Positions 909 through 20,558 of a DNA stretch of 25,175 nucleotides are shown here, piece by piece. The notes below the pieces were generated by a model. It did not search any database. It was not told the origin of the DNA and worked only from the letters and a program-made list of their open reading frames with translations. Source of the DNA: a virus (Duplodnaviria > Caudoviricetes); IMG/VR virus record IMGVR_UViG_3300016471_000446, positions 1-25,175 of that record, one strand, 5' to 3'. Both the position numbers and the translations under genes were made by a program. Numbering within the stretch: position 1 is the stretch's first letter; every line of letters begins with the position of its first letter.

Positions 909-2324
909 ATGACCACCACCTTCCTCCACGGCGTGGAGGTGCTCCAGATCGACACTGGAGCACGGCCGATCCAGACCGTCCGCTCCAGCGTGATCGGCAT
1001 CGTCGGCACTGCACCTGATGCTGACGCCACCGCCTTTCCCATCAACACCCCGGTGCTGGTGACCAGCAAGAGCGAGTACGCCAGCATCGGATCGACCGGC
1101 ACTCTGAAGAATGCGCTCGATCTGATCTACGCCCAGGCGGGTGCTGTCGTGGTGGTCATTCGCGTCACAGCCGGCGCCAACGATGAGGCGACGATCACCA
1201 ACGTCGTCGGTGGCGTCAACGCCACGACCGGCGCCTACGAGGGGGTCTACGACTTCCTGGCGGCCGAAAACGCCGTCGGCTTTGCTCCTCGCATCCTCAT
1301 CGCCCCGGGCTTCACACATCAGCGGCACAGCAACGGGATCCTGACGATTCCCATCAGCCAGCAGGGCAGCGGCTACACCACCGCTCCTGCCGTCACGATC
1401 TCAGCCCCGGCTGCTGGTGGTGTCCAGGCCACGGCGATCGCGGTGCTCGGCACCGGCGCCAATGCCGGCAAGGTCGTGAGCATCACGGTCACCAACCCCG
1501 GCACCAACTACACCTCGGCGCCGACCGTCACCATCGCCAACCCGCCGTCAGGTACCACCGCCCAAGCCGGCACCGCCACCCGCGGCACCGTCCGCAACCG
1601 GGTCGTCGCCGAGCTGCTCGGCATCGCCCAGCGTCTTCGTGCCGTCATCGTCGCCGACGGGCCCAACACCACCGACGCTGACGCCATCGCCTATGCCGGT
1701 GACTTCGGCTCCGATCGCGTCTACCTCGTCGATCCCTGGGTCGTCGTCGGTGGCGTCACCATGCCGTCGTCCCCCGCCGTCGCCGGCATCATCAACAAGG
1801 TCGACAACGAGCTCGGCTTCTGGTGGTCGCCCTCCAACAAGGAGATCAGCGGTATCGAGGCCACCAGCCGCGCCATTGACTTCGCCCTCGGCGATTACAG
1901 CTCCAGGGCCAACCTGCTCAACGAGAAGGACGTCACCACGATCATCCGTGAGCAGGGCTTCCGCCTCTGGGGCAACCGCACCCTCGCCACCGATCCCCTC
2001 TACTCGTTCCTCTCTGTCCGTCGCACCGCGGACATGATCAACGAGAGCATCCTCCGCGGCCACCTGTGGGCGGTCGATCGCTGCATCTCCGCCGTCTACC
2101 TCGAGGAGGTGATGGAGTCGGTCCGGGGCTACCTCCGCACCCTCAAGGCCCGCGGCGCCATCCTCGGTGGTGACGTCTGGGTTGATCCGGCCCTCAACAC
2201 CCCGACCAGCATCGCCGCCGGTCAGGTGTTCTTCGACTTCGAGTTCACCCCCCCTTACCCCGCTGAGCGTGTGACCTTCCGGTCCCACCTGGTCAACACC
2301 TACGTGGTTGACCTTCTCGCCTGA
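909..2324 (+). CDS. Contractile tail sheath protein (P2 gpFI-like) with an inserted beta-rich domain
   Basis: N-terminus FLHGVEV...VIGIVGTAPDAD; motifs PRILIAPGF, GFWWSPSN, GFRLWGNRT, FTPPYPAERVTF. RBS caggagga is upstream. Confidence 0.95.
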   Translation: MTTTFLHGVEVLQIDTGARPIQTVRSSVIGIVGTAPDADATAFPINTPVLVTSKSEYASIGSTGTLKNALDLIYAQAGAVVVVIRVTAGANDEATITNVVGGVNATTGAYEGVYDFLAAENAVGFAPRILIAPGFTHQRHSNGILTIPISQQGSGYTTAPAVTISAPAAGGVQATAIAVLGTGANAGKVVSITVTNPGTNYTSAPTVTIANPPSGTTAQAGTATRGTVRNRVVAELLGIAQRLRAVIVADGPNTTDADAIAYAGDFGSDRVYLVDPWVVVGGVTMPSSPAVAGIINKVDNELGFWWSPSNKEISGIEATSRAIDFALGDYSSRANLLNEKDVTTIIREQGFRLWGNRTLATDPLYSFLSVRRTADMINESILRGHLWAVDRCISAVYLEEVMESVRGYLRTLKARGAILGGDVWVDPALNTPTSIAAGQVFFDFEFTPPYPAERVTFRSHLVNTYVVDLLA

Positions 2325-2347
2325 ACCATCACCACGAGGACTGACCC

Positions 2348-2854
2348 ATGGCCCAGATTCCCCGCATCCTGAAGAACTTCAGCCTGTTCGTCGATGGTCG
2401 CGGCCTCGCCGGCACCATCAACACCCTCACCCTCCCCACCTTGGCCACCAAGATGGAGGAGGTCCGCGCCGGCGGCATGGACGCTCCGGCCGAGGTCGAC
2501 ATGGGAATGGAGAAGCTCGAAGCCAGCTTTGATCTGCTCGAGTACAACCCGGACGTCATCGCCCTCTACGGCCTGGCCGGGGCCGACAAGCAGCTCACCG
2601 CCCGTGGCGCCATGCGTCGCGATGCGGAAGATGCTGTGCCGGTGGTGGCGAACATGACCGGTGTGGTGAAGCAGCTGGAGACCGGCGACTGGAAGGCCGG
2701 CGACATGAGCATGCCGAAGTTCAGCGTGGCGCTGCGCTACCTGAAGCTGACGATCGGCGGCACTGAACTGGTTGAGATCGACGTGGTCAACATGATCCGT
2801 CGGATCAAGGGTCAGGATCAGCTGCAGTCCATCCGTAGCGCGATCGGAGCTTGA
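2348..2854 (+). CDS. Major tail tube protein (P2 gpFII-like)
   Basis: 168 aa with IPRILKNFSLFVDG, RAGGMDAP, DMGMEKLE and EIDVVNMIRRI; follows the sheath gene. Confidence 0.95.
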   Translation: MAQIPRILKNFSLFVDGRGLAGTINTLTLPTLATKMEEVRAGGMDAPAEVDMGMEKLEASFDLLEYNPDVIALYGLAGADKQLTARGAMRRDAEDAVPVVANMTGVVKQLETGDWKAGDMSMPKFSVALRYLKLTIGGTELVEIDVVNMIRRIKGQDQLQSIRSAIGA

Positions 2855-3138
2855 TGATGGCGATCGACAAGCGGGCGACCGTGAAGGTCGTCCTCGACTT
2901 TCCCATCACCGTCTCTGGGGTGGAGGTGAAGCACCTCACGATGCGTCGGCCGAAGGTGCGTGACGAGATGGCCTTCAGCAAGGCCAGCGGATTGACCGAG
3001 GACAAGGTGATGCAGCTGATCAGCAGCCTCACCGAAACGCCGATCGAGGATCTGATGGAGCTGGATGCGGCCGACTGGTTCAAGCTCGAGGAGCAGTACC
3101 AGGCTTTCAAGGGGGCCAGGCCACAGGGCGAGGGCTGA
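2854..3138 (+). CDS. Tail assembly chaperone (P2 gpE / FluMu gp41-like)
   Basis: LDFPITVSG...LTMRRPKVRD...LMELDAADW; located between tube and tape measure genes. Confidence 0.9.
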   Translation: MMAIDKRATVKVVLDFPITVSGVEVKHLTMRRPKVRDEMAFSKASGLTEDKVMQLISSLTETPIEDLMELDAADWFKLEEQYQAFKGARPQGEG

Positions 3139-3278
3139 GGCGGGCAGTGCTGAGCCTGTCGCTGCTCACCGGCTGGGGCCTGGCGGACATTGAGGGGATG
3201 GAGATCGATGACTTCTGGGCGTTCCTCGAGGATGCCCAGGTGCTCCAGAATGAGATCAAGGAGGGGATGGTGCAATGA
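3111..3278 (+). CDS. gpE'-like -1 frameshift extension of the tail chaperone
   Basis: The -1 frame reads ...LRRAVLSLSLLTGWGLADIEGMEIDDFWAFLEDAQVLQNEIKEGMVQ*, with the gpE'-type GW-x3-I-x2-M-x5-W pattern. Its TGA overlaps the tape measure ATG (ATGA). A G5 run is at 3111-3115. Confidence 0.75.
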   Translation, partial: GGQATGRGLRRAVLSLSLLTGWGLADIEGMEIDDFWAFLEDAQVLQNEIKEGMVQ

Positions 3279-5362
3279 TCGGCGGCGGGCCCCAGAAGAT
3301 CACGGTCGAGATCGGGGGCAAGATCGCCGCCAGCCTCGGGGCCGCACTGCGTGGTGCGCAGATGCAGGTCAGCTCGTTCGGGCGGAACGTGACCCGGACG
3401 ATGAACGATGCGGCGACGGCAGGCCGGAAGGGCTTCAAGGGCATGTTCGACAATGCCCTCTGGCAGCAGGCGGCGATTGGTGCGGCAGCGATCGGCACCG
3501 GCCTGGCGGCCAGTGTGCGCGTCGCGGCCCGGTTCGAGTCGGTGCTGTCCGACATCGGCAAGACCGCGAACATTGGTGAAGGCGAACTGAAGAAGCTCAG
3601 CGGCCAGATCCTGCAGCTCTCCGGCCGGAACGTCACCAACCTGGCGCCGGAGAAGCTGGCCGCCGGCATTCAGGATCTGGTCGCCCAGGGCCTGGAGCTG
3701 AAGGACGCCGTCGCGTCGATGGAGGCCCTCGGCAAGGTGGCGACCGCCACCAACTCAGATCTGCTCGACGTCACCAAGACTGGCTTCCAGCTGCAGAACG
3801 CACTGAAGATCCGACCGACGGAACTGAAGGCCACCTTCGATGCCCTGGCCTACGCCGGCAAGCAGGGCGCCTTCGAGCTGAAGGACATGGCCCAGTTCAT
3901 GCCCACCATCGCCGCAGCAGCGGGGACGATGGGCATCCAGGGCAAGAAGGGAGCGATCGCCCTGGCGGCGATGATGCAGATGGTGCGGAAGGATGCGCCA
4001 GACGCGGGCCAGGCCGCGACCCGGATGACGGACGCGATGCTGAAGATGACCGCGCCAGACGCGGTGAAGAACTTCAAGAAGTTCGGCGTCAACATCGAGC
4101 AGGTGCTGAAGAACGCCAAGGCAAAGGGTGTCAACCCGATGGAGGCAGCGCTCAGTGAGCTGCAGCGGGTGACCGGCGGCGACGTCTTTAAGCTCGGCCA
4201 GATCTTTGGCGACAAGGAGGCCAAGCTGGGCCTGATGTCGCTGATGAAGTACCGGAAGGAGTACGAGAAGCTGAAGGCGGATGCTAGTGGTGCGGCTGCC
4301 GCCGGCACCGTCGACAAGGACTACCAGCGGTCGCTCAAGACCTTCCAGGGGACGCTCACCAGCTTCCAGAACAGCAGCCAGCGGCTGGGCATCGCCGTCG
4401 GCAATGCACTGCTGCCTCCGCTCACGCGCCTGGCCGAGCTCATCACGCCGTTGGCGGAGGGGATCGCCGACTGGGCATCGAAGAACCAGGGCCTGATGGC
4501 TGGCATCGTCGGGATCGGCGCTGCCCTCGCCGGCCTGGTGGTGGCGCTGCCCGTCATTGCTGGTGTCGTCTCGGCAATCGGCACCATCGGGGCTGCCATC
4601 GGCGCCGTTATGGCTGCCGTGCCCCTGCTGGCCGGCATCGGCACCGTCTTCGCGCTCGTCGTCCCACCCATCGGCATCGCCGCCGCGGCCATCGGTGGTG
4701 TCGCGGCCCTGGCCTACGTCGTCATCCGCAACTGGCGACCGATCAGCGGATTCTTTGCCAACCTCTGGGGCCAGGTCGTCGCCGTCACCCGCCAGGTCGG
4801 GCCACAGATGCTGAGCATCTTCGCCCCCATCCCTGCCCTCATCATCCGGCTGTTCACCAGCAGCGGCATTGGCCAGCGGCTGATCACCTCGATCATCGAT
4901 GGCCTCAAGGCCAGGGCTGGTGCACTGTTTAGCTGGGTGTCGAGCGCGGTCAGCAGGATCGGCAGCATGATCGGCTCCGTGCGTCCTGGTGCGCCCCCTG
5001 CGGCGCCGCCTGCCACCACCCCGGCCAGCCCCCCTGCAACGCCGCCAGGTCGCGCGCGCGGGGGCCCGGTGCGCGCGGGCATGCCCTACCTGGTGGGCGA
5101 GCGCCGGCCAGAGCTGTTCGTCCCCGGCATGGATGGCGGCATCATCCCCCGCGTCGCCGCCCCGGTCACCGCCGCCGCCCTCGCCGCCGTTCTTGCTGGC
5201 CCAGCACCTGCTGCTGCAGCTCCCGCCATCACCATCAACGCTCCGGTCACCATCAATGCCGCCGGCGGCGATCATGGCGACATCCGCCGCCAGGTCGAGG
5301 ACGCCTTCGTCGACATCCTCCGCCGGGTCGAGTCCAGCCATCGCATGCTCCTCAACGACTGA
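3275..5362 (+). CDS. Tail tape measure protein (TP901-type core)
   Basis: 695 aa, Ala/Gly-rich and helical, with AGKQGAFELKDMAQ core, hydrophobic segments and C-terminal RARGGPV...YLVGERRPELFVP motif. Confidence 0.95.
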   Translation: MIGGGPQKITVEIGGKIAASLGAALRGAQMQVSSFGRNVTRTMNDAATAGRKGFKGMFDNALWQQAAIGAAAIGTGLAASVRVAARFESVLSDIGKTANIGEGELKKLSGQILQLSGRNVTNLAPEKLAAGIQDLVAQGLELKDAVASMEALGKVATATNSDLLDVTKTGFQLQNALKIRPTELKATFDALAYAGKQGAFELKDMAQFMPTIAAAAGTMGIQGKKGAIALAAMMQMVRKDAPDAGQAATRMTDAMLKMTAPDAVKNFKKFGVNIEQVLKNAKAKGVNPMEAALSELQRVTGGDVFKLGQIFGDKEAKLGLMSLMKYRKEYEKLKADASGAAAAGTVDKDYQRSLKTFQGTLTSFQNSSQRLGIAVGNALLPPLTRLAELITPLAEGIADWASKNQGLMAGIVGIGAALAGLVVALPVIAGVVSAIGTIGAAIGAVMAAVPLLAGIGTVFALVVPPIGIAAAAIGGVAALAYVVIRNWRPISGFFANLWGQVVAVTRQVGPQMLSIFAPIPALIIRLFTSSGIGQRLITSIIDGLKARAGALFSWVSSAVSRIGSMIGSVRPGAPPAAPPATTPASPPATPPGRARGGPVRAGMPYLVGERRPELFVPGMDGGIIPRVAAPVTAAALAAVLAGPAPAAAAPAITINAPVTINAAGGDHGDIRRQVEDAFVDILRRVESSHRMLLND

Positions 5363-5364
5363 CC

Positions 5365-6294
5365 ATGGCACGCCCCCTCTTCCAGCTCGGCAGCTTCCAG
5401 TTCGACCTGCAGAACGGGGCCCCGCAGACCCTCGACCGGACGGCGGAGTACCGGTGGGAGGAGCAGCCGCGCATCCTCCGTGATCCCGCCAACCAGTTCC
5501 TTGGCCCTGGCTCCCAGCAGATCACCCTCGACGGCACCCTCTACCCGGGCTTCACCGGCAAGGTCACGACCATCGAGTCGCTGCGCTCCCTCGCTGCGAA
5601 AGGCGAGCCGCAGATGCTCACCGATGGCATGGGCAAGGTGCATGGAAAATGGGTGATCAAGCGGGTCCGGGAGGGCCAGGGCAGCTTCCTCCAGGGCGGC
5701 GCCCCTCGTCGCATCGACTTCACCCTTGACCTGCTGCGCTACGCCGAGGACAACCCCGGCGCTGCGGCCAGCCCCACCAGCGTCTCCGCGGTCTCCGGCC
5801 TGGCCGGCGACTACGCCCAGATCATCAGCAGCCTGGATCCGTTCACCGTCGACGAGTCCGCCTTCGACTTCGCCTCCTGGGCCAACAGCGCCGAGTTCAG
5901 TGTCGTCGCCGAGGCCGCCCGTGGTGCTGGCTTCAACCTTGGACAGCTCGCTGGCATCGCGCAGGCGATCGGCAACCAGAACTACGTCCAGGCTGCCCTC
6001 AACGCCTTCGGTCTCGCCAGCCTCAACATTGACCAGAGCAACACCTGGGTGCAGCTCGGCATCAATGCTGCTCAGATGGCGCAGCAGTTCGCCGCCGGCC
6101 GCGGGCCGGAGGCCACCGGCATCGCCCTCGAGGCCCTTCGTCCTGCCACCACCGCCATGCTCCAGACCCTCGGTGGTGGCGTCGGTGGCGGCCAGGCCCT
6201 GGCCGACATGATCGGCAGCGCATCGACCATCATGACGATGCTGGACGTCGATCCCTACGTCACCGACACGATCCGAAGCCTGATCCGACCATGA
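5365..6294 (+). CDS. P2 gpU-like tail protein with a long C-terminal extension
   Basis: The first ~127 aa match gpU (LFQLGSFQF, QFLGPGSQQITLDGTLYP, GKVHGKWVI, IDFTLDL), followed by ~180 extra residues. Confidence 0.85.
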   Translation: MARPLFQLGSFQFDLQNGAPQTLDRTAEYRWEEQPRILRDPANQFLGPGSQQITLDGTLYPGFTGKVTTIESLRSLAAKGEPQMLTDGMGKVHGKWVIKRVREGQGSFLQGGAPRRIDFTLDLLRYAEDNPGAAASPTSVSAVSGLAGDYAQIISSLDPFTVDESAFDFASWANSAEFSVVAEAARGAGFNLGQLAGIAQAIGNQNYVQAALNAFGLASLNIDQSNTWVQLGINAAQMAQQFAAGRGPEATGIALEALRPATTAMLQTLGGGVGGGQALADMIGSASTIMTMLDVDPYVTDTIRSLIRP

Positions 6295-6503
6295 GCCAGG
6301 TCTACGTCACCCGCCAGTTCGACATGGTCGACCTCATCTGCTGGCGCTACTACGGCCGCACGCAGGGAACGGTCGAGGCGGTGCTGGCGGTGAACCAGAA
6401 CCTGGCGGACCTGGCCCCGATTCTGCCCGAGGGCCTCCGCATTCTGCTGCCGGACCTGCCAGCACCTGACACCACCGAGACCCTCAGGATCTGGAGCCCA
6501 TGA
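6291..6503 (+). CDS. Tail protein X (P2 gpX, LysM-like)
   Basis: 70 aa with DMVDLICWRYYG...VEAVLAVNQNLA...LPEGLRILLP. Confidence 0.93.
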   Translation: MSQVYVTRQFDMVDLICWRYYGRTQGTVEAVLAVNQNLADLAPILPEGLRILLPDLPAPDTTETLRIWSP

Positions 6504-7960
6504 CCACCCCGGCGTTCCGCATCGTCGTCGATGGCAGCGACGTCACCGCGCAGATCAAGGATCGACTCGTCAGCCTGCGCGTCACCGACGAAGCCGGGCA
6601 GGTGTCGGACAGCTGCGAGATCACGCTGGATGACCGCGAGAAGCGGATGCCGATGCCCAGGACTGGCGCATGGGTGCGGGTGTGGATGGGCTACAGCACC
6701 GGCGGGAAGCTGCCGGTCTACATGGGCGCCTTCGCCGTTGATGACTGCGACCTCAGCTGCGGCCCACGGTCGATGGTGATCCGCGCCACTGCTGCTGCCA
6801 CGGCTCCAGAGCTGGTGAAGGAGCAACGAACCGAGGCCTGGCACAACACCACCCTGGGACAGATCGGGGCCAAGATCGCGCAGCGCAACGGACTCCAGCC
6901 CGTGTTCAAGGGCAACCTGGCGAGCATCGAGATCAAGCACGAAGACCAGACGAACGAGAGTGACCAGTCGTTCCTCACCAGGCTGTCGGAGAAGATCCGA
7001 GCGACGATCAAGCCGGCCGACGGCAAGCTCGTCTTCCAGCCGCGCGGCACCGGCGAGGGGCTGCAGCAGGACTTCACCGTGAAGGAGACGGAAGTGTCGA
7101 CTTGGCGGGCGAACGTGAAAAACCGCGGCGCCTACGGTGAGGTGGAGGTGCGCTACCTGGACCGCCCGAGCCAGAAGGAGAAGACGAAGAAGGCGGGGCA
7201 GAAGGGGAAGCTGCCGACGTACCAGGAGAAGCAGCTGGCAAAGAATGAGGAGGAGGCACAGAAGCAGGCCGAGTCGAAGTTGCAGAGCCTCCAGTCCGGA
7301 GAGGTGCGGATCAGCCTCACCATGCCTGGCCGGCCAGACATCAGCGCTGAGGGGCTGATCACGCTCGAGGACTTCCGGCCGGAGGTGAATGGGACGTGGA
7401 ACGTGAAGCAGATTGAGCACACCATCGACAGCCAGGGGTATCGCACCTCGATCGAATGCGGAACGAAGGGAGAGGAGAACGACGACTGGACGCTGGGTGA
7501 GGTTGGCGGCGGCAGCGGCACCCTCGGCACGCCAGGGCAGAACAACGGCAAGCCAGCCGGCGTGAAGTCGAACCTCATCGCACGGTCGGCCGAGCAGCTG
7601 CGTGGGATGAACACCAGGGGCGGGCCTGACGGCGGCAACAATGCTTGCCTCTTCGCCGTGAACCGGGTACTGAGGAACGCCGGCATCACGCCGCCGTGGG
7701 GCAACAGCAACTACGTCCCGACGGCGCAGCAGGTGCTCGCCGGTGGCGCCGGCACACTGCTGTCGGGCCCCGAGCCTGGCGCGATCGCGATCATGCGTGA
7801 CTACGGCAACCCTCCCTACCCCCACGTTGGTGTCGTCGGAACTGATGGCAGCACGATCATCAGCAACAGCTCCTCCCGCGGCACGTTCTCCTGGGCCGCC
7901 GGCGAAGGCAGCTACACCTCCACCTACGGTCGAACCCCTCTCTACTACCGACTCCGGTAG
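6500..7960 (+). CDS. P2 gpD-like baseplate hub fused to a C-terminal CHAP/NlpC-P60-like peptidase domain
   Basis: N-terminal gpD motifs (RLVSLRVTDEAGQVSD, DQTNESDQSFLTRL), then a Gly-rich linker, then NACLFAVNRVL...PEPGAIAIM...PHVGVV with Cys/His as a candidate catalytic pair. Confidence 0.85.
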   Translation: MTTPAFRIVVDGSDVTAQIKDRLVSLRVTDEAGQVSDSCEITLDDREKRMPMPRTGAWVRVWMGYSTGGKLPVYMGAFAVDDCDLSCGPRSMVIRATAAATAPELVKEQRTEAWHNTTLGQIGAKIAQRNGLQPVFKGNLASIEIKHEDQTNESDQSFLTRLSEKIRATIKPADGKLVFQPRGTGEGLQQDFTVKETEVSTWRANVKNRGAYGEVEVRYLDRPSQKEKTKKAGQKGKLPTYQEKQLAKNEEEAQKQAESKLQSLQSGEVRISLTMPGRPDISAEGLITLEDFRPEVNGTWNVKQIEHTIDSQGYRTSIECGTKGEENDDWTLGEVGGGSGTLGTPGQNNGKPAGVKSNLIARSAEQLRGMNTRGGPDGGNNACLFAVNRVLRNAGITPPWGNSNYVPTAQQVLAGGAGTLLSGPEPGAIAIMRDYGNPPYPHVGVVGTDGSTIISNSSSRGTFSWAAGEGSYTSTYGRTPLYYRLR

Positions 7961-9321: not shown

Positions 9322-9474
9322 ATGGAGCACTATCTCAAGCCCGAGTACATCGGCTTCGCCCTGTTCATCGTGTCCGAGATCATCGGCATGGCGAAGGTGC
9401 GTCCCAACAGCGTCACCCAGCTGGCTCTTCAGCTGCTCCGCCGGGCCTTCCCCTACCAGCCCGGCCGGTTCTGA
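9322..9474 (+). CDS. Small membrane protein, putative holin
   Basis: 50 aa, MEHYLKPEYIGFALFIVSEIIGMAKVRPNSVTQL..., coupled to the lysozyme gene by a TGATG overlap. Confidence 0.55.
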   Translation: MEHYLKPEYIGFALFIVSEIIGMAKVRPNSVTQLALQLLRRAFPYQPGRF

Positions 9475-9908
9475 TGGTTGATCGCAATGCGATGGTGCGG
9501 CAGCTGCGCCTCCATGAGGGGGAGCGGCTGCGGCCGTACCGCTGCACCGCTGGGAAGCTGACGATCGGCGTCGGCCGCAACCTGGAGGACCGCGGCATCA
9601 GCGCCGAGGAGTCGGCCATGCTGCTGTCAAACGACATCAGCCGAGAGGAGCGTGAGCTGCTGGCGGCGCTGCCGTGGGTGGCGAAGCTGTCGGAGGTGCG
9701 GCAGCGGGTGCTGCTCGACATGAGCTTCAACCTGGGCCTGCAGGGCCTGCTGGCGTTCAAGCGGACGCTGGCCGCGATCCAGGCGGGGCAGTACCAGCAG
9801 GCGGCGGGAATGATGCTCGAGTCGCTGTGGGCCCGGCAGGTGGGGCAGCGTGCGCAGCGGTTGAGCGAGATGATGGCGACAGGCCAGGTGCCGAAGGAGC
9901 TGGCCTGA
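9474..9908 (+). CDS. Endolysin, GH24 (T4-type) lysozyme
   Basis: LRLHEGERLRPYRCTAGKLTIGVGRNL (catalytic E...T), DMSFNLG, and SLWARQVGQRAQRL. Confidence 0.92.
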   Translation: MVDRNAMVRQLRLHEGERLRPYRCTAGKLTIGVGRNLEDRGISAEESAMLLSNDISREERELLAALPWVAKLSEVRQRVLLDMSFNLGLQGLLAFKRTLAAIQAGQYQQAAGMMLESLWARQVGQRAQRLSEMMATGQVPKELA

Positions 9909-9914
9909 TCGCGG

Positions 9915-10106
9915 TCAGGCCGCCAGCATCCGCCGGACGGTGGTGCGGCTGACGCCGAGGCGGTCAGCAATGGCCTGCTGGGTCATGCCAGCGCGGCGCC
10001 ACCGGCGGGCCCGCTGCTCGCGTGACTCGGTCAACAGGTAGATCACCAGCAGCGGGATGGTGAGGATGGCCAGGAGAGTGGCCAGGAGGCAGGTGAGGGT
10101 GGTCAT
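9915..10106 (-). CDS. Small HTH protein with an N-terminal transmembrane helix
   Basis: About 25 hydrophobic residues, then GMTQQAIADRLGVSRTTVRR (canonical HTH). Confidence 0.8.
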   Translation of the reverse strand: MTTLTCLLATLLAILTIPLLVIYLLTESREQRARRWRRAGMTQQAIADRLGVSRTTVRRMLAA

Positions 10107-10156
10107 TGTGTGGAGTGCGGTGGGGTCGGCGGCGCGCTCGGCCTGCCGATTGGCCC

Positions 10157-10210
10157 AAGGTAGAGCCGCGGCATGGCGCCGCGCCGGTGCATGTCACAAC
10201 TCGTTACACG
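10157..10210 (-). promoter_or_regulatory. HLR1-like box plus -10 (TACCTT) upstream of the TM-HTH gene
   Basis: Box TGTCACAACTCGTTACA at 10192-10208; 29-nt spacer; TACCTT at 10162-10157 on the - strand. Confidence 0.6.
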
Positions 10211-10221
10211 AGCGGCGATGG

Positions 10222-10372
10222 AATCGTTGGGGTCAGGTGACGCCCGACCCCCGAGGCGACCAGCCCTTGTCGCTGGTGGGAGGATCCGGCCCCTGCATCC
10301 GGCTTGTGGGTGGTGGCTGACCCTTGTCGTCAGCGGGAGGATCCGGGCCTCAGCTATCCGGCTTCTGGGCTG
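10222..10372 (-). ncRNA. Candidate structured ncRNA: two tandem ~57-nt units plus a terminal hairpin
   Basis: Hairpins accagc-CCTTGTC-gctggt and gctgac-CCTTGTC-gtcagc share the loop but have different, fully paired stems. Each is followed by gggaggatccgg...atccggctt. A further hairpin ggggtc...gacccc lies at ~10229-10251, and a -10 box is just upstream on the - strand. Confidence 0.55.
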
Positions 10373-10377
10373 CGCAG

Positions 10378-10431
10378 AACATAGCGCCGGTGGATCACAC
10401 CCAGTGGGTGGCTGTTGCAATCCGTCACACA
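10378..10431 (-). promoter_or_regulatory. HLR1-like box plus -10 (TATGTT) upstream of the candidate ncRNA
   Basis: Box TGTTGCAATCCGTCACA at 10413-10429; 29-nt spacer; TATGTT at 10383-10378 on the - strand. Confidence 0.6.
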
Positions 10432-10437
10432 CCCACT

Positions 10438-10617
10438 TCACCCACGACGCACCCCCCGCCGCACGGCGCGATGGATGCGAACGGTGGCAGTTACCGGCCA
10501 GATGGCGCCGGCCAGGCTGGCGCGGGCCCATTCGGCTAGTTCGTTGATGTGGTCCATGCGGACACAGGCGACGGTCGTGATGACCATGGCCCAGACGTAG
10601 ATCTCAATCAAGAACAT
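10438..10617 (-). CDS. Small hypothetical membrane protein (59 aa)
   Basis: MFLIEIYVWAMVITTVACVRMD...LAGAIWPV... is the C-terminal part of the 10438-11124 ORF, with a plausible ATG at 10617. Confidence 0.55.
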   Translation of the reverse strand: MFLIEIYVWAMVITTVACVRMDHINELAEWARASLAGAIWPVTATVRIHRAVRRGVRRG

Positions 10618-10666
10618 GTTAAGAATGCAATGGAAGGCCCGGATAGGCTCCGGGCGGGCCATGGGC

Positions 10667-10768
10667 TCAGATGACTCTGAAGTCGGCGGCGGTGGTGCTG
10701 TTCCGAGTCCACTGCAGCGTGCAGAGAATCTGAGCGTTAGCGCCGCGGGTGCCAGTGAAAGAAGCCAT
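10667..10768 (-). CDS. Possible 33-aa peptide
   Basis: MASFTGTRGANAQILCTLQWTRNSTTAADFRVI* is the first ATG ORF downstream of the 10844 promoter. Confidence 0.3.
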   Translation of the reverse strand: MASFTGTRGANAQILCTLQWTRNSTTAADFRVI

Positions 10769-10809
10769 GATGTCCAATGGTGAAGGGCGGCCAGGTCGGC
10801 CGTGGCCCC

Positions 10810-10878
10810 ATCATCGCGCCACCACCCACCACCACCATCAACCTGTCGCAATCCTTCACACTCAGCCCGCCCTAGACT
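10810..10878. promoter_or_regulatory. Divergent promoter region with an HLR1-like box
   Basis: Box TGTCGCAATCCTTCACA at 10844-10860; GATGAT 28 nt away on the - strand (10815-10810); TAGACT at 10873-10878 on the + strand. Confidence 0.55.
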
Positions 10879-10902
10879 GGCCCATCTCTTGACGCACTCT
10901 CC

Positions 10903-11163
10903 ATGGGTTGGATCGACTGCGCTCTTCCCCTCCACCGGCAGCTCGATGTCGAGCAGGAGGTTCGCACCATCCTCGCCTGCAACGACCTCGAGGCCGTTCG
11001 CAACCTCGCCGCCTTCCTCCTCCGCTACGCCGCACTCCAGACTCACACCTCTGCTCAGCTGGTGAAGCAGCTCGCTGCCGCTGAACACCAGAACGGCCCA
11101 CAGCCGCCGACCGATGAGCACCACCGCTGGGCGCAGGAACTGATGGCAGAACTGCGACCATGA
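10903..11163 (+). CDS. Small helical protein, possibly NblA-like (phycobilisome degradation adaptor)
   Basis: 86 aa; LPLHRQLDVEQEVR...DLEAVRNLAAFLLRYAALQTHTSAQLVK resembles the NblA two-helix pattern by eye. It is the only convincing + strand gene in the - strand arm. The ORF is likely real; the function is tentative. Confidence 0.4.
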   Translation: MGWIDCALPLHRQLDVEQEVRTILACNDLEAVRNLAAFLLRYAALQTHTSAQLVKQLAAAEHQNGPQPPTDEHHRWAQELMAELRP

Positions 11164-15760: not shown

Positions 15761-15813
15761 ATCATCGGGCGCCACGCCCCTCCCTCCCATGACCTGTTAC
15801 AGATCTTCACGCG
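15761..15813 (-). promoter_or_regulatory. HLR1-like box plus -10-like GATGAT
   Basis: acc-TGTTACAGATCTTCACG with the box at 15795-15811; GATGAT at 15766-15761 after a 28-nt spacer. Confidence 0.55.
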
Positions 15814-20183: not shown

Positions 20184-20511
20184 ATCCGCGATCCAGCAGG
20201 CGATCCGCCTCCTCTCCCGCGGGCCCGTCCGCCTCTTCCGCAACAACACCGGTGCTCTCAAGGACCAGACCGGCCGCCTCGTGCGCTACGGCCTCTGCAC
20301 CGGCTCCAGCGACCTCATCGGCTTCCGCACCATCACCATCACGCCCGACATGGTCGGCCAGCGCATCGCCGTCTTCACCGCCATCGAGGTCAAGGACCGC
20401 GGCCGCGCCACCCCCGAGCAGCAGGCTTTCATCGCCATGGTCCAGGCCGCCGGTGGTCTTGCCGGCATCGCTCGCTCCGTCGACGACGCACGCTCCATCC
20501 TTGGCATGTAA
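20164..20511 (+). CDS. VRR-NUC domain nuclease
   Basis: ESAIQQAI, LFRNNTG, GSSDLIG and AIEVK..GRATPEQQAF. Confidence 0.9.
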   Translation: MPACSDESAIQQAIRLLSRGPVRLFRNNTGALKDQTGRLVRYGLCTGSSDLIGFRTITITPDMVGQRIAVFTAIEVKDRGRATPEQQAFIAMVQAAGGLAGIARSVDDARSILGM

Positions 20512-20558
20512 CCGAGTGTTACAACCCACGGATTTGCCCGCCACCCTCGGGCTACGGT
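20505..20558 (+). promoter_or_regulatory. HLR1-like/palindromic box plus -10 (TACGGT)
   Basis: TGTAACCGAGTGTTACA at 20507-20523; 29-nt spacer; TACGGT at 20553-20558; upstream of the operon leading to PrimPol. Confidence 0.6.

Follow-up and report, generated by a model that had tools for sequence, protein, structure and literature searches.

The 25,175-nt stretch of virus DNA analysed here (the window) carries, on its minus strand, two tandem pseudoknot-plus-hairpin units at a predicted transcript start. Judged by comparison with their relatives, the units belong to a real phage leader RNA family that is absent from Rfam 15. Our preferred reading, held tentatively, is that they form a 5′-end shield that slows decay of the transcript by the host. 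Small lake and estuary cyanophages keep the fold at an early transcript start across tail types, which would make it a conserved contact point with the host RNA machinery. The reading is testable, because a cultured phage-host pair carries the unit (phage S-CBS1 and Synechococcus CB0201).

Genome setting

The 25-kb virus record has a contractile-tail gene block and a lysozyme on the plus strand, and recombination genes and small genes on the minus strand. The host is likely a picocyanobacterium, because the primase-helicase is 68% identical to its counterpart in Synechococcus phage S-LBS1, the best matches of exonuclease VIII are Synechococcus phages, and the sequencing runs containing most of the window are freshwater metagenomes. 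None of the runs containing the window is listed as RNA, and two labelled RNA-Seq are probably DNA. The contractile-tail block (909-7960) is closest to Pseudomonas and Xanthomonas phages (~60%) and is joined to the Synechococcus-phage-like replication genes. The tandem units sit at the far end of the leftward (minus-strand) region, 260 nt upstream of a gene of 63 amino acids. The features are as follows.

10414..10431, direct repeat resembling HLR1, predicted RpaB site (10-nt period; on the plus strand, 10 of 12 core positions match)
10378..10383, minus strand, predicted −10 hexamer TATGTT; predicted start A10371
10371-10316, minus strand, unit 1, pseudoknot and P2 hairpin
10343..10371, minus strand, unit 1 pseudoknot: A10371; GCC 10370-10368 pairs with GGC 10349-10347; P1 pairs CCGG 10361-10358 with CCGG 10346-10343
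10316..10342, minus strand, unit 1 pyrimidine linker and hairpin P2 (10334-10316, 6 bp, 7-nt GACAAGG loop)
10311-10259, minus strand, unit 2, pseudoknot and P2 hairpin
10286..10311, minus strand, unit 2 pseudoknot: A10311; CCC 10310-10308 pairs with GGG 10292-10290; P1 pairs 10302-10299 with 10289-10286
10259..10285, minus strand, unit 2 linker and hairpin P2 (10277-10259, 6 bp, sequence other than in unit 1, identical loop)
10229..10251, minus strand, third hairpin (9 bp, 5-nt loop; folding z −3.1)
10157..10210, minus strand, second predicted promoter (HLR1-like box 10193-10210, 11 of 12; −10 TACCTT 10162-10157)
10126..10150, minus strand, second leader hairpin, beginning one base after the predicted start A10150
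9915..10106, minus strand, 63-aa gene (hydrophobic N-terminal helix and helix-turn-helix), the sole downstream gene before the convergent lysozyme gene
9474-9908, plus strand, lysozyme gene, converging on the 63-aa gene

Architecture of the two units

Much of this layout agrees with the initial annotation: TATGTT at 10383-10378 and the direct-repeat box at 10414-10431 lie upstream of the units, the two 6-bp stems differ while staying fully paired and closing an identical 7-nt loop, and the third hairpin is present at 10251-10229. The two minus-strand units are likewise there, but their spacing is 59 nt rather than the ~57 nt given, and the annotation saw the P2 hairpin of each unit while missing the CCGG/CCGG helix and the pseudoknot in its first half. 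Two open reading frames do mechanically overlap the element (10103-10531, minus, 142 aa; 10173-10547, plus, 124 aa), but PHROG gave no match to either of them, and the sense-strand frame, open across the window element, is closed in several two-unit relatives (e.g. L002 and L192). The third hairpin is retained in two-unit relatives, and other hairpin modules take its place in one-unit relatives.

A covariance model built from the relatives recovered only two copies in the window, at 56 and 42 bits (both in the training set), with the next match at 9 bits. The whole 150-nt element is not unusually stable (folding z −0.28), and the folding energies of the single units are not significant (z 0.15 and 1.71); the pseudoknot is short (3–4 plus 4 bp) and is not predicted by folding. 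Because folding energy is unremarkable, the case for an RNA structure rests on covariation in the relatives.

Covariation of the three helices

All three helices of the unit (pseudoknot, P1 and P2) covary, including at positions that were left free in the searches. The pseudoknot forms between the 5′ triplet and the bases that end the P1 loop. A fixed-register test of pseudoknot and P1 used 20 long-loop sequences hand-picked from 47 rows (no insertions, one register); in this alignment 140 of 140 cells were paired and 11 were changed on both sides, vs. 1.9 in shuffles (0 of 500), with only 3 of the 7 pairs varying. Slid controls of the alignment were 13–52% paired. We use the fixed-register counts because a flexible-register test of pseudoknot length did not discriminate, with at least 3 bp in 27 of 28 observed cases and also in 51% of 600 flank swaps. 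In a metagenome scan, neither the 5′ flank nor P1 position 3 was constrained; among the matches listed, that position was G-C (32), A-U (19) or C-G (8) in 62 distinct modules, and the remaining 3 look like chance matches. Anchoring a scan solely on the linker and loop returned the P1 forms CCCG/CGGG, CCAG/CUGG and UCAG/CUGG, and the unselected metagenome set includes pseudoknot forms such as GGU/ACC, GGUU/AACC and GGUC/GACC.

Of 41 distinct modules, 32 can form a P2 stem of at least 5 bp, compared with 5.1% of 1510 arm swaps. In fixed register, 152 of 181 P2 positions are Watson-Crick, 14 G-U, 2 A-C and 13 other. Because G-U exceeds A-C by 14 to 2, the fold is assigned to RNA of the sense strand, which is the minus strand of the window. 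Taken together, the comparisons support the earlier picture of a non-coding RNA element close to a promoter, folded on the sense strand and with loops that are conserved.

The same data bear on a DNA-level element (protein sites, a restriction decoy or a single-stranded DNA hairpin), which the initial annotation had named as a refuting outcome and which we consider very improbable. The window copy does have repeated CCGGA words and palindromes, but the palindrome is lost in the covarying forms, the spacing ranges from 13 to over 20 nt, the G-U excess lies on the sense strand, and the orientation to the promoters is fixed.

In some relatives the P1 loop contains an extra hairpin; others have the pseudoknot but no P2. 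The base directly 5′ of the pseudoknot is A in 106 of 106 long-loop units and in 24 of 38 short-loop units. Of 144 distinct units, 102 have UUCUC as the linker and 13 contain CCUCC, on which the earlier suggestion of an anti-Shine-Dalgarno or antisense segment was rejected, although the window copy can pair in silico with the sheath ribosome-binding site at −13.7 kcal/mol. A CsrA/RsmA sponge was rejected, since the four GGA words have their GG inside the P1 helix and not exposed in hairpin loops.

Distribution of the family

A pattern scan of viral contigs yielded 109 stretches, with 100 of the new loci carrying the unit in 72 distinct contexts, and the metagenome scan yielded at least 120 loci (~180 estimated) with 85 distinct units among the matches listed; these are counts of sequences, not of independent events, because the two sets overlap in source and include near-identical contigs. 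Loose pattern scans gave mostly chance matches. The linker and loop were absent from all genome-collection loci among the matches listed (120 of ~360 estimated).

Forty-three of the 44 carrier records searched whole have a single locus, with one unit or a tandem; one record also has an extra, weak 14-bit match. Most relatives carry one unit; tandem duplications are independent, with spacings of 57, 59 and 82 nt. The unit crosses tail types, because a relative of the tail-sheath protein is present in 0 of 5 near-complete carriers and the window has a contractile tail. In contigs from other studies the element is nearly unchanged (0–2 differences), and the flanking genes differ more.

A blastn search with a fourth variant found a cultured carrier, Synechococcus phage S-CBS1 (NC_016164.1, a siphovirus); searches with the window element and two other variants found no cultured phage. 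S-CBS1 has an unannotated copy at 26163-26233 on the minus strand (43 bits, model R1). Its −10 spacing is identical to that of the window and it has an HLR1-like box, but it consists of one unit, in which P1 position 3 is A-U and the loop contains an inserted hairpin, and it heads a long operon with exonuclease VIII, with at least 4 kb of co-directional genes downstream. At L923 4430-4750 in S-CBS1, an unannotated reading frame of ~99 codons on the element's strand matches genes located downstream of the unit in metagenomic relatives; what the record annotates there is a short reading frame on the opposite strand. The unit is absent from the related cultured cyanophages S-LBS1, S-H1 and KBS-S-2A, so the element is dispensable. 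A weak match in S-LBS1 falls within coding sequence and was rejected as chance.

The 63-aa protein belongs to a family of membrane-anchored helix-turn-helix proteins with 560 relatives, often encoded by the first gene of early cassettes, and has no match in cultured phages. Among the matches listed, most of 80 loci with relatives of this protein lack the unit, and it is absent from 6 of 6 records with such relatives, each searched whole; the unit and the 63-aa gene are therefore not a fixed pair. At L002 1866-1880 a truncated copy (the first 11 bases of the unit) stands right after the stop codon of the helix-turn-helix gene and before a two-way terminator-like hairpin.

Predicted promoters

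HLR1, to which RpaB binds, is described as an imperfect octamer repeat with a 2-nt spacer whose activating position is ~50 nt upstream of the start (PMC6525291). Both predicted promoters of the window match this layout, with 10 and 11 of 12 core matches at the right distance; the box at 10414..10431, centred ~51 nt upstream of the predicted start, is one of 12 sites scoring at least 9 in the window. The second promoter repeats the layout of the first, with one A and then a helix. It is missing in some close relatives: contigs of 6 of 8 runs join 10150 to 10221, and L002 lacks it. A simple sigma-70 scan found no promoter in 9800-11000 because there is no −35 hexamer.

In 23 of 55 clusters of upstream sequences from relatives, the end of a TAnnnT hexamer lies exactly 7 nt ahead of the pseudoknot. 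The distance is 5–6 nt in 10 more, and no other distance up to 80 nt accounts for more than 2. When the hexamer is defined more loosely, 41 of 61 clusters count as start-type, and their promoter sequences vary widely; the other clusters are internal, mostly after a hairpin and an unpaired linker. An HLR1-like box precedes the unit in 10 of the 41 start-type clusters vs. a shuffle mean of 0.8, and 4 of 41 have one in the next interval downstream. Elsewhere in the window, boxes at 15796-15813 and 20505-20525 have 10–11 of 12 matches, one with a −10 hexamer 29 nt on, which suggests further phage promoters of the RpaB type.

A probable leader rather than a free RNA

In the window no intrinsic terminator was found in 9800-11000. 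Because no terminator follows the element and close relatives lack the second promoter, a leader is a better reading than a free small RNA. The initial annotation had taken it for a self-standing RNA of ~150 nt; this fits poorly with the missing terminator and with the start of a gene soon after the last hairpin in most relatives. In relatives the unit is followed by one or several further hairpin modules together with C/A-rich sequence and small genes of unrelated kinds, or in some cases by a second promoter. By a crude gene caller, the element heads or lies within a co-directional gene run of 1.3–7 kb in 19 of 20 fetched relatives. In the window and L002 a single small gene separates the element from the convergent lysozyme gene (450–470 nt).

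A sponge acting through repeated loops had also been proposed. The repeats lose weight as an argument now that most relatives prove to have one unit; we retain as a rather unlikely rival the broader idea that the leader releases a stable RNA that neutralizes, in trans, a host protein that binds RNA or acts against phages, at a dose that tandem copies would increase. Such a decoy would suit the gene-like behaviour of the element, which keeps one locus per genome while its neighbours change, was duplicated in tandem independently, and is near-invariant beside more divergent flanking genes. In ~6 of 60 downstream clusters (read by eye), including that of the window, promoter, element and promoter follow one another with no gene between, and phages are known to make pseudoknot RNAs that mimic type III antitoxins. 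However, the 3′ end is not set by a terminator, single copies directly before a gene predominate, and the listed genome loci (120 of ~360 estimated) include no host copy to mimic.

An effect on translation, with the unit as an enhancer or operator for leader-proximal genes without a Shine-Dalgarno sequence, is improbable. It would explain the pseudoknot-only copies, which lie inside operons 15–16 nt before AUG, and the C/A-rich leaders of downstream genes; the unit is usually 70–160 nt from AUG behind other hairpins, though, the downstream genes are mutually unrelated, and in the window the second promoter intervenes.

Comparison with known RNA families

Rfam 15 gave 0 gathering matches in the window and 3 weak, unrelated matches at E≤10 in 10050-10500, 1 unrelated terminator-like match across 20 relative loci, and 0 matches at E≤10 around the S-CBS1 copy. 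The initial annotation had recognized no named family, and this search of the window, the relatives and S-CBS1 bears it out. No published description of the motif was found at the level of titles and abstracts. The same database was mined by Fremin 2023 (PMC10690425), with 8,495 unnamed candidates reported; the motif was not found in the searched part of the supplement, and the unit family quite possibly sits unnamed among those candidates.

The guanidine-III riboswitch (RF01763) has a CCGG/CCGG stem, a pseudoknot and a GGACAAG stretch, as does the unit (10.1101/2025.04.15.648854). In the unit, however, it is the 5′ end that pairs in the pseudoknot, GACAAG belongs to the loop of a hairpin, the loop opens in a different way, and no transporter gene follows; the model matches nothing at the element and has one 7.6-bit match elsewhere in the window, and with its differing topology this identity was rejected. 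A likeness to twister, HDV-like, hairpin and pistol ribozymes was rejected on topology, and Rfam, which includes them, gave no match. A new self-cleaving ribozyme or ligand-binding aptamer is quite improbable. The compact pseudoknot, the conserved unpaired bases, the invariant A just 5′ of the first helix and the surface likeness to guanidine-III would suit one, but no Rfam ribozyme or riboswitch matches, the pseudoknot pairs with the 5′ end and not the 3′ end, and there is no expression platform or common downstream function.

Antitoxin repeats of type III toxin-antitoxin systems and phage pseudo-antitoxins consist of a promoter followed by tandem pseudoknot units of about 35–60 nt. The window element shares this order of promoter and tandem pseudoknots but has no toxin gene or terminator downstream, is mostly single in relatives, and has no Rfam match; a type III antitoxin array was rejected, as no terminator is present and the downstream gene encodes a membrane-anchored helix-turn-helix protein.

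A proposed 5′-end shield and competing readings

We favour the 5′-end shield because a single base would stay unpaired at the predicted start, the second promoter repeats the layout, half copies precede operon genes, and the relevant RNases are present: besides RNase E, cyanobacteria possess a single RNase J that seems to be essential and attacks RNAs without a 5′ triphosphate (PMC10989914), and RNase J1 can be blocked by an xrRNA (PMC5760640). Comparison of relatives also shows the fixed position one A downstream of the predicted start, the one locus per genome and the interchangeable neighbouring genes and hairpin modules. Host RNA polymerase would start at A10371, probably aided by RpaB at the HLR1-like box. 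The 5′ triplet would then pair into the loop of the CCGG helix, leaving a single unpaired base at the 5′ end, and the conserved unpaired bases (AAG, AU, the pyrimidine linker and the GAC loop) may be engaged in tertiary contacts or in binding a protein that steadies the fold. So folded, the unit could block trimming by RNase J and 5′-end-dependent entry of RNase E; once the RNA is cut upstream of them, internal copies (unit 2 among them) would form fresh 5′ ends that are likewise protected.

Several observations weigh against the shield. A generic stabilizer could recur at many promoters, yet 43 of 44 carriers are single-locus; the conservation of loop and linker exceeds what a simple protective hairpin needs; and the spacing from −10 to start is partly set by polymerase geometry and shared cassette ancestry. 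The shortness of the pseudoknot, which folding does not predict, and the absence of the unit from three related cultured cyanophages count against it too. The long co-directional runs in 19 of 20 relatives also fit antitermination.

Antitermination is a possible though less likely function: by analogy with the put sites of phage HK022, the nascent RNA would bind host RNA polymerase and make it resist pausing and termination through the early operon. HK022 putRNA is 73 nt, with two stems, a first paired base at +3 and a triplex in stem I, and binds the β′ zinc-binding domain (PMC9378689). The unit resembles it in being an early phage leader (by its predicted promoters, promoter-proximal in the early transcript) of about 60–75 nt with two structural domains and pairing from +2/+3 (PMC9378689). 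One locus per genome, long downstream runs (with a crude hairpin-plus-U match in 11 of 20 relatives, and at least 4 kb in S-CBS1) and a conserved host target, which would explain conservation across tail types, all suit this function. It is harder to reconcile with the window and L002, where one small gene precedes the convergent lysozyme and, in the window, no terminator was found to be overcome, with the second promoter that often follows at once and would bypass the element, and with the pseudoknot-only copies. Moreover, put has two long stems with a triplex in place of a pseudoknot and hairpin, the put paper, in which the word “pseudoknot” does not occur, describes none (PMC9378689), and the unit has a cyanobacterial host and tandem or half copies. 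If true, a put-like role would extend RNA-only antitermination to cyanobacteria.

A bolder version of the shield, unlikely as a whole, is a phage-encoded, protein-free exonuclease-resistant RNA, in which the pseudoknot would mechanically stall cyanobacterial RNase J and tandem or internal copies would carve stable RNAs from early transcripts, as flaviviral xrRNAs do in animal cells, the unit being one member of an interchangeable kit of 5′-end modules shuffled between cyanophage genomes. Bacterial RNase J1 is blocked in vitro by a tandem flaviviral xrRNA and by xrRNA2 (PMC5760640). The unit shares with xrRNAs and 5′-terminal mRNA stabilizers a compact pseudoknot engaging the 5′-most bases, tandem copies and conserved unpaired bases. 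It differs from xrRNAs in having two interlocked helices and a separate hairpin, as supported here, in place of a three-way junction ring, and in lying at a bacterial transcription start in a DNA phage with no Rfam match; its resistance is proposed by analogy. A block of RNase J, if true, would give access to a cyanobacterial enzyme that is essential yet poorly understood, and would supply a 30–60 nt stabilizer for cyanobacterial engineering.

Other hairpin modules in the leaders

Other recurrent hairpin modules precede or follow the unit in varying order, as at L923 4125-4200 (S-CBS1) and in L855, L825, L591 and L600. They comprise a hairpin with a GAGCWGCGAUC apex, a hairpin pair with a UUGGC loop and a longer GAUC-stem module, none with an Rfam match, and together they look like a shuffled kit of leader RNAs. 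The second leader hairpin of the window, with a GGC-CGAG.G.-GCC apex, recurs before many relatives of the 63-aa gene (e.g. L260, L262, L300 and L319). Upstream of the helix-turn-helix gene in L249, L259, L266 and L269 stands a different compact motif, compatible with a classical H-type pseudoknot of 3 bp plus 7 bp.
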